64,000 nucleotides of DNA, from assembly GCA_963769885.1 (NCBI GenBank), contig CAVYNH010000005.1:119144-183143 (forward strand), written 5' to 3'. This document shows positions 60,022-63,811 of the stretch, piece after piece. Position 1 is the stretch's first letter, and every line of letters begins with the position of its first letter. A program made the translations under genes and the position numbers. This DNA is from Methanobacteriota archaeon. GTDB taxonomy: Archaea > Thermoplasmatota > E2 > DHVEG-1. Under the pieces are notes generated by a model. That model saw only the letters and a list, made by a program, of their open reading frames with translations, was not told the DNA's origin and searched no databases.

Positions 60022-60190
60022 ACACCTCTCGCCCTTACCAGGTGTACAAACTCAGGGACGCCTTTTAAATGTTTCTAGAACCTTTTTATACGAAACACAG
60101 GAAAAAAGACAGGAAAAAATCAGAATGACAGGGTTTACCCCTAACACCATTGATGATCGAAGAAATAAAAGGAAAGGGAAAATGTAAGGT

Positions 60191-60420
60191 GGCTTGACAG
60201 CGTACCAGGGGCCTCTAGGTTTCAAGCAGTGGAGCTTACCCCAAAAGAGTCCCGAAGGACTCAACTGAGGCTCTCCACCTAGCCTAAAGGTCCCAGCCCT
60301 CTTGCGAGGGTAATCTTCCCATGGGCTCGCGCACCATAGTACCGAAGATTACGCAGGTAAGCTTAACTGCCGGGTTCGGAATGAGACCGGGTGTTTCCCT
60401 ACCGCTTTGACCGTCAAACC
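60191..60420 (-). rRNA. rrf: 5S rRNA with ~105-nt expansion segment
   Basis: CACCCGGTCTCATTCCGAACCCGGCAGTTAAG core; helix I closes only between GGTTTGACGG and CTGTCAAGCC, 230 nt apart. Confidence 0.9.
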
Positions 60421-60461
60421 ACCGTTACCATGAACGTGCGTACGTAATCTGTATAACGATT

Positions 60462-63652
<3,191 letters not shown>

Positions 63653-63811
63653 AATATTCGTCCAGATTACGTATGCACACCACTACACAGCATAAGCTAA
63701 TACGGACATGATGTAGTGGAGACGATCATCGACCCCAGAAGGTCTACGTCCTCACCACCGAATCTCTCGCGACACTCGGTGGCGCTTGTTCGTTGAAATC
63801 GGAAGAACCAA

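Follow-up and report, generated by a model that had tools for sequence, protein, structure and literature searches.

A 108-nt expansion segment in the 5S rRNA gene of uncultured Thermoplasmatota and its likeness to the Halococcus insert

The 5S rRNA gene in the 64,000-nt stretch of DNA analysed here (the window) is 231 nt long (60190-60420, minus strand), as established from its sequence, from RNAfold and from an alignment with 39 other full-length expanded genes (227-232 nt). It consists of a 108-nt core, a 108-nt insert and a 15-nt 3' end. This is a real 108-nt expansion of 5S rRNA, family-wide in the GTDB family of the source genome and patchily phylum-wide, and it is a variant of the sole kind known from archaea. 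The sequence of the gene, its fold, the covariation, its presence as a single copy and its distribution were observed directly. We consider it probable that the 108 nt represent a genuine, selected expansion segment, a module set in the 3' strand of helix V that keeps the normal 5S fold and would be retained in the mature RNA.

The expanded gene and its fold

The core of the gene (60313-60420, 108 nt, minus strand) starts at G60420 and comprises the 5' strand of helix I, helices II and III, loop C, helices IV and V, and loop E. It aligned well with RF00001 over model positions of about 10-110, and its helices were recovered by both RNAfold and RNAalifold. The core can be followed to ...GGGAAGAUUAC (60320-60310), where, in place of the 3' strand of helix I, the sequence continues with CCCUC-GCAA-GAGGG. 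The 5' end, GGUUUGACGG, has its perfect partner in the distal strand UAC-GCUGUCAAGCC (60191-60204, minus strand). In this strand, UAC (60204-60202) is the end of the original 3' strand of helix V and GCUGUCAAGCC (60201-60191) is the 3' strand of helix I, which pairs with 60420-60410. Helix I formed in this way has 11-13 bp, can be extended to 60188-60422, and tolerates one-sided changes in relatives as G-U pairs. The same far strand is found, directly after ...GGUUC, in the normal 5S of sister families (GCUGUCAAGCC). A T-rich tract (60159-60189, minus strand), likely an archaeal termination signal, lies directly past the distal helix I strand, and not after the 3' end called by Rfam; its placement is the same in relatives. 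A scan of the window 5S locus for bacterial-type promoters and terminators gave nothing, as expected for an archaeon.

The preliminary description of this DNA had predicted that standard annotation would probably truncate the gene, and this is what happened with Rfam. RF00001 called a shortened '5S' at 60299-60418 (minus strand) with 78.8 bits, against a gathering score of 38, and covered nothing beyond these positions. In this call helix I is forced onto CCCUCGCAAGAG, with non-standard pairs marked. The conserved core of RF00001 (helices II-V, loops B, C, D, and E, and the sequence blocks) was present, and a helix I made from both ends of the molecule was found with 60201-60191, not with the Rfam-called 3' end. 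The 5S genes of these metagenome-assembled genomes (MAGs) are thus systematically mis-annotated as being 120 nt long.

The gene lies in its normal place, 37 nt after the 23S rRNA gene (60458-63656, minus strand), in an rRNA operon at the end of the window that also contains tRNA-Ala(UGC) (63883-63812, minus strand). The source genome (2.09 Mb, 7 contigs, 92% complete) gave no other match to RF00001, and R1, the covariance model (CM) of the arm, detected the arm once in it. With a single match, a single copy of the arm and a T-rich tract after the distal strand, the window 5S is the working gene of this genome. In the same operon, the 23S match spans 3199 nt, compared with 2987 positions in the model, and the 23S gene contains a group I intron (RF00028, 77.2 bits; 61469-61682, minus strand), which at only 214 nt is too short for a homing endonuclease.

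Folding of 60188-60422 with RNAfold left the 5S core intact, closed helix I (13 bp) with the far strand, and gave two extra arms, a short hairpin and a long one. The folding energy was -112.3 kcal/mol, as compared with -82.7 +/- 4.9 kcal/mol for 200 dinucleotide shuffles (z = -6.0). The expansion segment itself occupies 60205-60312 or, equivalently, 60202-60309 (minus strand), with UAC at both ends, and scored 128.9 bits with R1. Its length had been put at about 105 nt; we found 105-108 nt, depending on the flanking copy of UAC that is counted. It opens with hairpin 'a', CCCUC-GCAA-GAGGG (60297-60310, minus strand), followed by the long arm (60205-60296, minus strand), which includes GGUGGAG/CUCCAC and is backed by both the fold and covariation. 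The long arm begins with a basal stem and an 8-bp stem; after an asymmetric internal loop (3 nt on one side, 8 nt on the other) come two 7-bp stems, separated by a 1 by 3 loop, and finally a capped hairpin, GAGUCC-UUCG-GGACUC (60247-60262, minus strand). These are exactly the CCCTC-GCAA-GAGGG hairpin and the TTCG-capped long arm that had been read from the sequence beforehand. The two sides of the asymmetric loop are conserved: on the 5' side, the unpaired or edge motif CUAGG (60278-60282, minus strand) corresponds to columns T33, A34, G35, and G36 of alignment A3, all invariant, and on the 3' side CUGCUUGAAA (60220-60229, minus strand) corresponds to columns 85-94, which are invariant or nearly so.

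Covariation was analysed in 40 distinct full-length sequences of the family (227-232 nt), which were aligned with MAFFT almost without gaps. In this alignment 96.8% of the cells were paired, and double-sided changes were found in 18 of the 33 pairs; none of 500 shuffles was as good, and slid registers were only 32-53% paired. The pair formed by columns 7 and 14, in hairpin 'a', switches from C-G to U-A in 15 of the 40 sequences, and that formed by columns 54 and 65, in the distal hairpin, shows double changes in 27 of 40, with a UUCG loop that is invariant in all 40. A cross-family alignment of 19 sequences from 10 families, which was fitted with a CM and so leans to the structure, was 91% paired, with double-sided changes in 28 of the 33 pairs and again no shuffle out of 500 as good. 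The compensatory changes indicate that the arm is under purifying selection. Within the family, 40 of the 112 positions of the insert are invariant, many of them unpaired (in CUAGG, GAGAGC, UUCG, GGUAA, and CUGCUUGAAA), a pattern to be expected of a contact surface and not of a spacer. The mean column identity of the core was 87% in the 40 sequences. The earlier proposal, that of a 5S rRNA nearly doubled by a structured and selected insert, agrees with both the z-score of the fold and the covariation, and the near doubling itself was confirmed almost to the base.

Searched alone against the Rfam families, including group I and group II introns, the insert gave a best E value of 0.066, far below the gathering scores. 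We also considered a mobile repeat as the identity of the arm and rejected it on finding, with R1, one copy per genome.

Distribution and turnover in Thermoplasmatota

In the GTDB family of the window genome (f1), R1 detected the arm in 58 of 108 genomes, four of which are single-contig assemblies. RF00001 matched in 56 genomes, all of them among these 58, and the arm directly abuts the core. No member with a normal 5S was found among the 56 genomes with a 5S match, the rest being without an assembled 5S. All exact-pattern matches in named genomes were to uncultured Thermoplasmata or Thermoplasmatota MAGs (one labelled just 'bacterium'), and the nearest relative, from the same genus, matched a lake-sediment MAG. 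The family alignment also includes the expanded 5S genes of MAGs SM1-50 and 3300003432D, which Zhou et al. (PMC6461988) list as Thermoprofundales (MBG-D).

To cover the phylum we used an even sample of 151 genomes, 120 of them with a 5S. Besides f1, R1 found matches in families f9, f41, and f43, and inspection of the low-scoring 5S matches disclosed that f19, f22, f23, f32, f36, and f37 likewise have 100-112 nt inserted at this place. The scores of R1 on the arms of these nine families ranged from 94 down to 15 bits, those of the last six (30 to 15 bits) being obtained with filters off. R2, an iterated model, gave 51-68 bits with inserts of the f19/f22/f23/f32/f36/f37 type and 36.5 bits (E 5.5e-7) with a held-out f23 sequence. 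R3, built solely from four sequences of f22, f32, f36, and f37 and none of f1, found the arm of the window with 74.3 bits (E 7.9e-17). This indicates that the Thermoplasmatota inserts form one RNA family, with at least three subtypes. Altogether the 5S was inspected in 40 families, with the arm found in 10 and a normal 5S of about 122 nt in 30, among which is a sister family of the same order that lacks the insert; all the genomes are MAGs, in which rRNA contigs are prone to mis-binning, and this could inflate the patchiness. The preliminary description had remarked that an independent case in this lineage would be notable. The expansion does occur in this lineage, but it extends to nine further families, and it may not be independent of the Halococcus insert, with which it coincides in site, size, plan and first hairpin.

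Several other 5S genes of the phylum were unusual. In G158 (f32, L135) the 5S is about 162 nt long, with a 40-nt insert at the same site that consists of two small hairpins, CCUGGCUUGCCAGG and GUCCGCAAGGAC; this may be an arm that has been reduced, or one at an early stage. G245 (f9) contains, about 2.5 kb downstream of its real gene (L100:2838-2965), a second, truncated copy of the 3' portion of its expanded 5S, which runs from helix IV 3' onward through the whole arm and the helix I strand into the same downstream flank and stands directly after a protein-coding region. In G259 (L142) and G182 (L161) a bacterial-looking 5S (UCGGUGGCGAUGGCGGAGGGG...) accompanies the archaeal one and is likely due to contamination of the bins. 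In G155 (f10, L158) RF00001 matched over only 88 nt, twice in the genome, and downstream of this match neither the return of helix IV/V nor a helix I strand could be recognised; this 5S may be truncated or otherwise aberrant.

The insertion site could be defined by comparing close relatives with and without the arm. Family f23 has two genera that each contain one arm-bearing and one arm-less species, with near-identical cores. In one of them, the normal 5S of G183 reads ...GGGAAUUUUGGAUC up to helix I (GCUGUCC), versus ...UUUUGG, the insert and AUC up to the same GCUGUCC in the expanded 5S of G188; G171 and G140 show the same plus/minus difference, and a further such pair was found in f19 (G133 versus G143). 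According to these pairs, the insert interrupts helix V in its 3' strand, with 3-4 nt left before helix I begins. This rules out the three-way junction (loop A), where helix V meets helix I, as its site, and the structure is predicted to be a four-way junction rather than an enlarged loop A.

The near-identity of cores with and without the arm indicates recent gain or clean loss; the simplest route would be a recombination in which one 5S allele replaces another. Mis-binned rRNA contigs could contribute to the plus/minus pattern, but the matching cores argue against this. In f1, UAC is present at both borders of the insert (60310-60312 and 60202-60204, minus strand), and the 5' GUA of helix V finds a compatible partner in each copy (37-38 of 40 sequences); the sequence L058 has changed in all three triplets jointly (GUG/CAC/CAC). 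The double UAC may reflect a 3-bp junction capable of branch migration, or it may be a vestige of the arrival of the insert.

Comparison with the Halococcus insert and other expanded 5S rRNAs

The only systematic survey, that of Stepanov and Fox (2021; PMC7812874), searched RefSeq genomes, with MAG-only lineages outside its scope, and reported 89 expanded 5S genes. Its archaeal cases are confined to Halobacteriales, with the Halococcus-type insert in Halococcus, Halalkalicoccus, Halomarina, and Halodesulfurarchaeum; the window gene lies outside this group, in Thermoplasmatota. A search of PMC and bioRxiv, which is not proof of absence, found no prior report of an expanded 5S in Thermoplasmata. 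These archaeal cases are all of a single type, described in the survey as 108 nt inserted between positions 104.1 and 105 and forming an 'asymmetric V', that is, a short hairpin and a long arm (PMC7812874); a supplement caption places it between C108 and G109 in Haloarcula numbering. The 231-nt 5S of Halococcus morrhuae was sequenced as RNA (Luehrsen 1981, as cited in PMC7812874), and in the cryo-EM structure of this ribosome (PMC7530397) the insert forms a four-way junction, leaves the 5S core undisturbed and waves into solvent. The preliminary description was right about an insertion of similar size in this part of the Halococcus 5S (108 nt; PMC7812874, PMC7530397).

The two inserts are alike in many respects. 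Both occur in the 3' strand of helix V, between loop E and the three-helix junction, at sites that agree within about 1 nt. In the published supplementary FASTA, the H. morrhuae sequence reads ...GGGAAAACUG, then the insert (CCUCGCAAGAGGG GCCAAG...CUAGUG), then GUUC and helix I (GCCGCC), which puts the insert 4 nt before helix I. The insertion point is thus ...UG-insert-GUUC in Halococcus, and ...UG-insert-GAUC or ...GG-insert-AUC in f23. Counted from GGGAA to where helix I ends, the stretch measures 129-133 nt in haloarchaea and 122-136 nt in Thermoplasmatota, and in both the total length is about 231 nt, with an insert of about 108 nt. Both have the shape of an asymmetric V, in which a short hairpin comes first and a long arm, unbranched and composed of stems and internal loops, comes second, and both open with the identical 13-mer hairpin CCUCGCAAGAGGG (CCUC-GCAA-GAGGG). 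The layout of the arm is also common to the two: a basal stem, a stem, a loop of 2-3 by 8 nt, a 6-7-bp stem, a 3-nt bulge on the 3' side, and distal helices. In both, the expanded 5S is the only type of 5S of the cell.

There are also differences. The lineage of the window belongs to Thermoplasmatota, not to Halobacteriota, and comes from non-halophilic sediment and groundwater. The distal halves show no likeness, with UUCG-capped helices in Thermoplasmatota and a conserved GUACACGCAGGGUCCGUCCCGGUGGA element in haloarchaea. Moreover, Halococcus is the one of the two for which retention in the RNA and position in the ribosome have been demonstrated. We know of no function even for the Halococcus insert.

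Homology searches between the two groups gave no statistical backing for a common origin. A profile of 17 Thermoplasmatota inserts matched none of 3 haloarchaeal inserts with nhmmer, and 35 of 3000 shuffles gave weak matches. For the covariance models, 7 halo-type loci were retrieved from metagenomes by means of a pattern taken from the conserved haloarchaeal distal element. R2 gave one match at the correct place in these loci, with 8.9 bits and an E value of 4.5 over 41.6 kb, or 0.029 if the search is restricted to the 271-nt 5S region; the insert was aligned end to end, helix for helix. R3, which represents the subtype closest to the haloarchaeal one by eye, gave no match with the 7 loci.

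The arm thus appears to be built, and presumably to work, like the Halococcus type, and the odds of a common origin are roughly even. One possibility, to which we give slightly less than an even chance, is that the Thermoplasmatota arm and the Halococcus insert are a single, self-contained 108-nt rRNA module, ancient or laterally moving, which would have been transferred, or inherited and repeatedly lost in a clean manner, in two phyla, and which would bind a partner at the central protuberance. About as plausible is an independent origin, with the shared site, size and V shape being imposed by steric constraints. The lack of a significant link between the groups with sequence and covariance models is consistent with independence, as are the unrelated distal halves and the statement by Stepanov and Fox that the site 'allows unhindered sequence expansion' in archaea (PMC7812874). 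Agreement of the insertion points within about 1 nt, with a similar span from GGGAA to helix I, the same order of elements in the arm, down to the loop of 2-3 nt by 8 nt, the 6-7-bp stem and the 3-nt 3' bulge, the identity of the opening hairpin CCUCGCAAGAGGG, and the end-to-end alignment by R2 at 8.9 bits all argue in the opposite direction.

Expanded 5S genes are also found in bacteria (Thermoanaerobacterales, Clostridiales, Halanaerobiales, and Alteromonadales; Stepanov and Fox 2021), where they are likewise structured, have an intact core fold and are often missed by annotation. They differ from the present case, in which the expanded gene is the only copy of the genome.

Retention in the ribosome and significance

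As we picture it, the module would form a four-way junction with two extra arms, the short GNRA-capped hairpin and the long arm. It would stay in the mature 5S RNA, of about 231 nt, and extend into the solvent at the side of the central protuberance, as in the H. morrhuae ribosome. The conserved loop nucleotides CUAGG, GGUAA, CUGCUUGAAA, and UUCG may provide a docking surface for a protein or another rRNA element. The RNA family would owe its patchy occurrence over uncultured Thermoplasmatota to repeated gain or clean loss, probably via recombination between 5S alleles; its architecture is of the Halococcus type, with which it may share its origin.

It is alternatively conceivable, if rather unlikely, that the 108 nt are an intervening sequence, either a spliced intron or a spacer whose excision leaves a fragmented 5S, and that the ribosome contains a 5S of normal size. 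Like archaeal rRNA introns (bulge-helix-bulge or group I), the segment is an insert in an rRNA gene that is patchy among close relatives, and its presence or absence between congeneric species resembles the behaviour of an intron or a mobile intervening sequence. The operon does contain a group I intron in its 23S gene, and precise removal between the two UAC copies would yield a plausible 5S of 123 nt. Yet the insert differs from these introns in having neither a bulge-helix-bulge motif nor a group I or group II core, and in its structure and length being conserved by selection. By inspection, no bulge-helix-bulge could be drawn: the start of the insert, UACCCUCGCAAG, has no 4-nt complement in UACGCUGUC, past the 3' border, and the borders of the insert lie in a multi-helix junction rather than in two 3-nt bulges separated by a 4-bp helix. 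No intron or other family of Rfam matched the insert, whose 108 nt would not accommodate a group I or group II intron. At least 10 families share its length, its helices, which covary, and its unpaired motifs; excision alone would not require such conservation and is thereby disfavoured. Finally, the Halococcus insert, of the same size and at the same site, is retained in the mature RNA (PMC7812874, PMC7530397). The absence of a bulge-helix-bulge motif and of an intron core, and the conservation of structure and length, point to a segment that would be retained rather than to an intron. It is even more improbable, and in our opinion highly so, that we are dealing with a decaying or non-ribosomal 5S copy, or with an artefact of assembly or binning. 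All the data come from MAGs, and some expanded 5S genes of bacteria have been suggested to be pseudogenising (Stepanov and Fox, PMC7812874). Against this stand the facts that the gene is the only 5S gene of its genome and has the usual position, 37 nt past the 23S, that it has the same form in 58 independent assemblies of the family, four of them single-contig, and that the core is conserved (mean column identity 87%) and the arm shows compensatory changes.

Large expansion segments are seen as a eukaryotic trait. The present gene shows a 5S of double length to be the rule in Thermoprofundales/MBG-D, which rank among the most common archaea of sediments, and about one in four of the Thermoplasmatota families inspected for 5S have related arms. 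The large set of sequences with covariation and the close plus/minus pairs make it possible to address the function of the arm and the gain and loss of an rRNA domain. The origin of the Halococcus insert, be it by transfer, common descent or convergence, also becomes testable.
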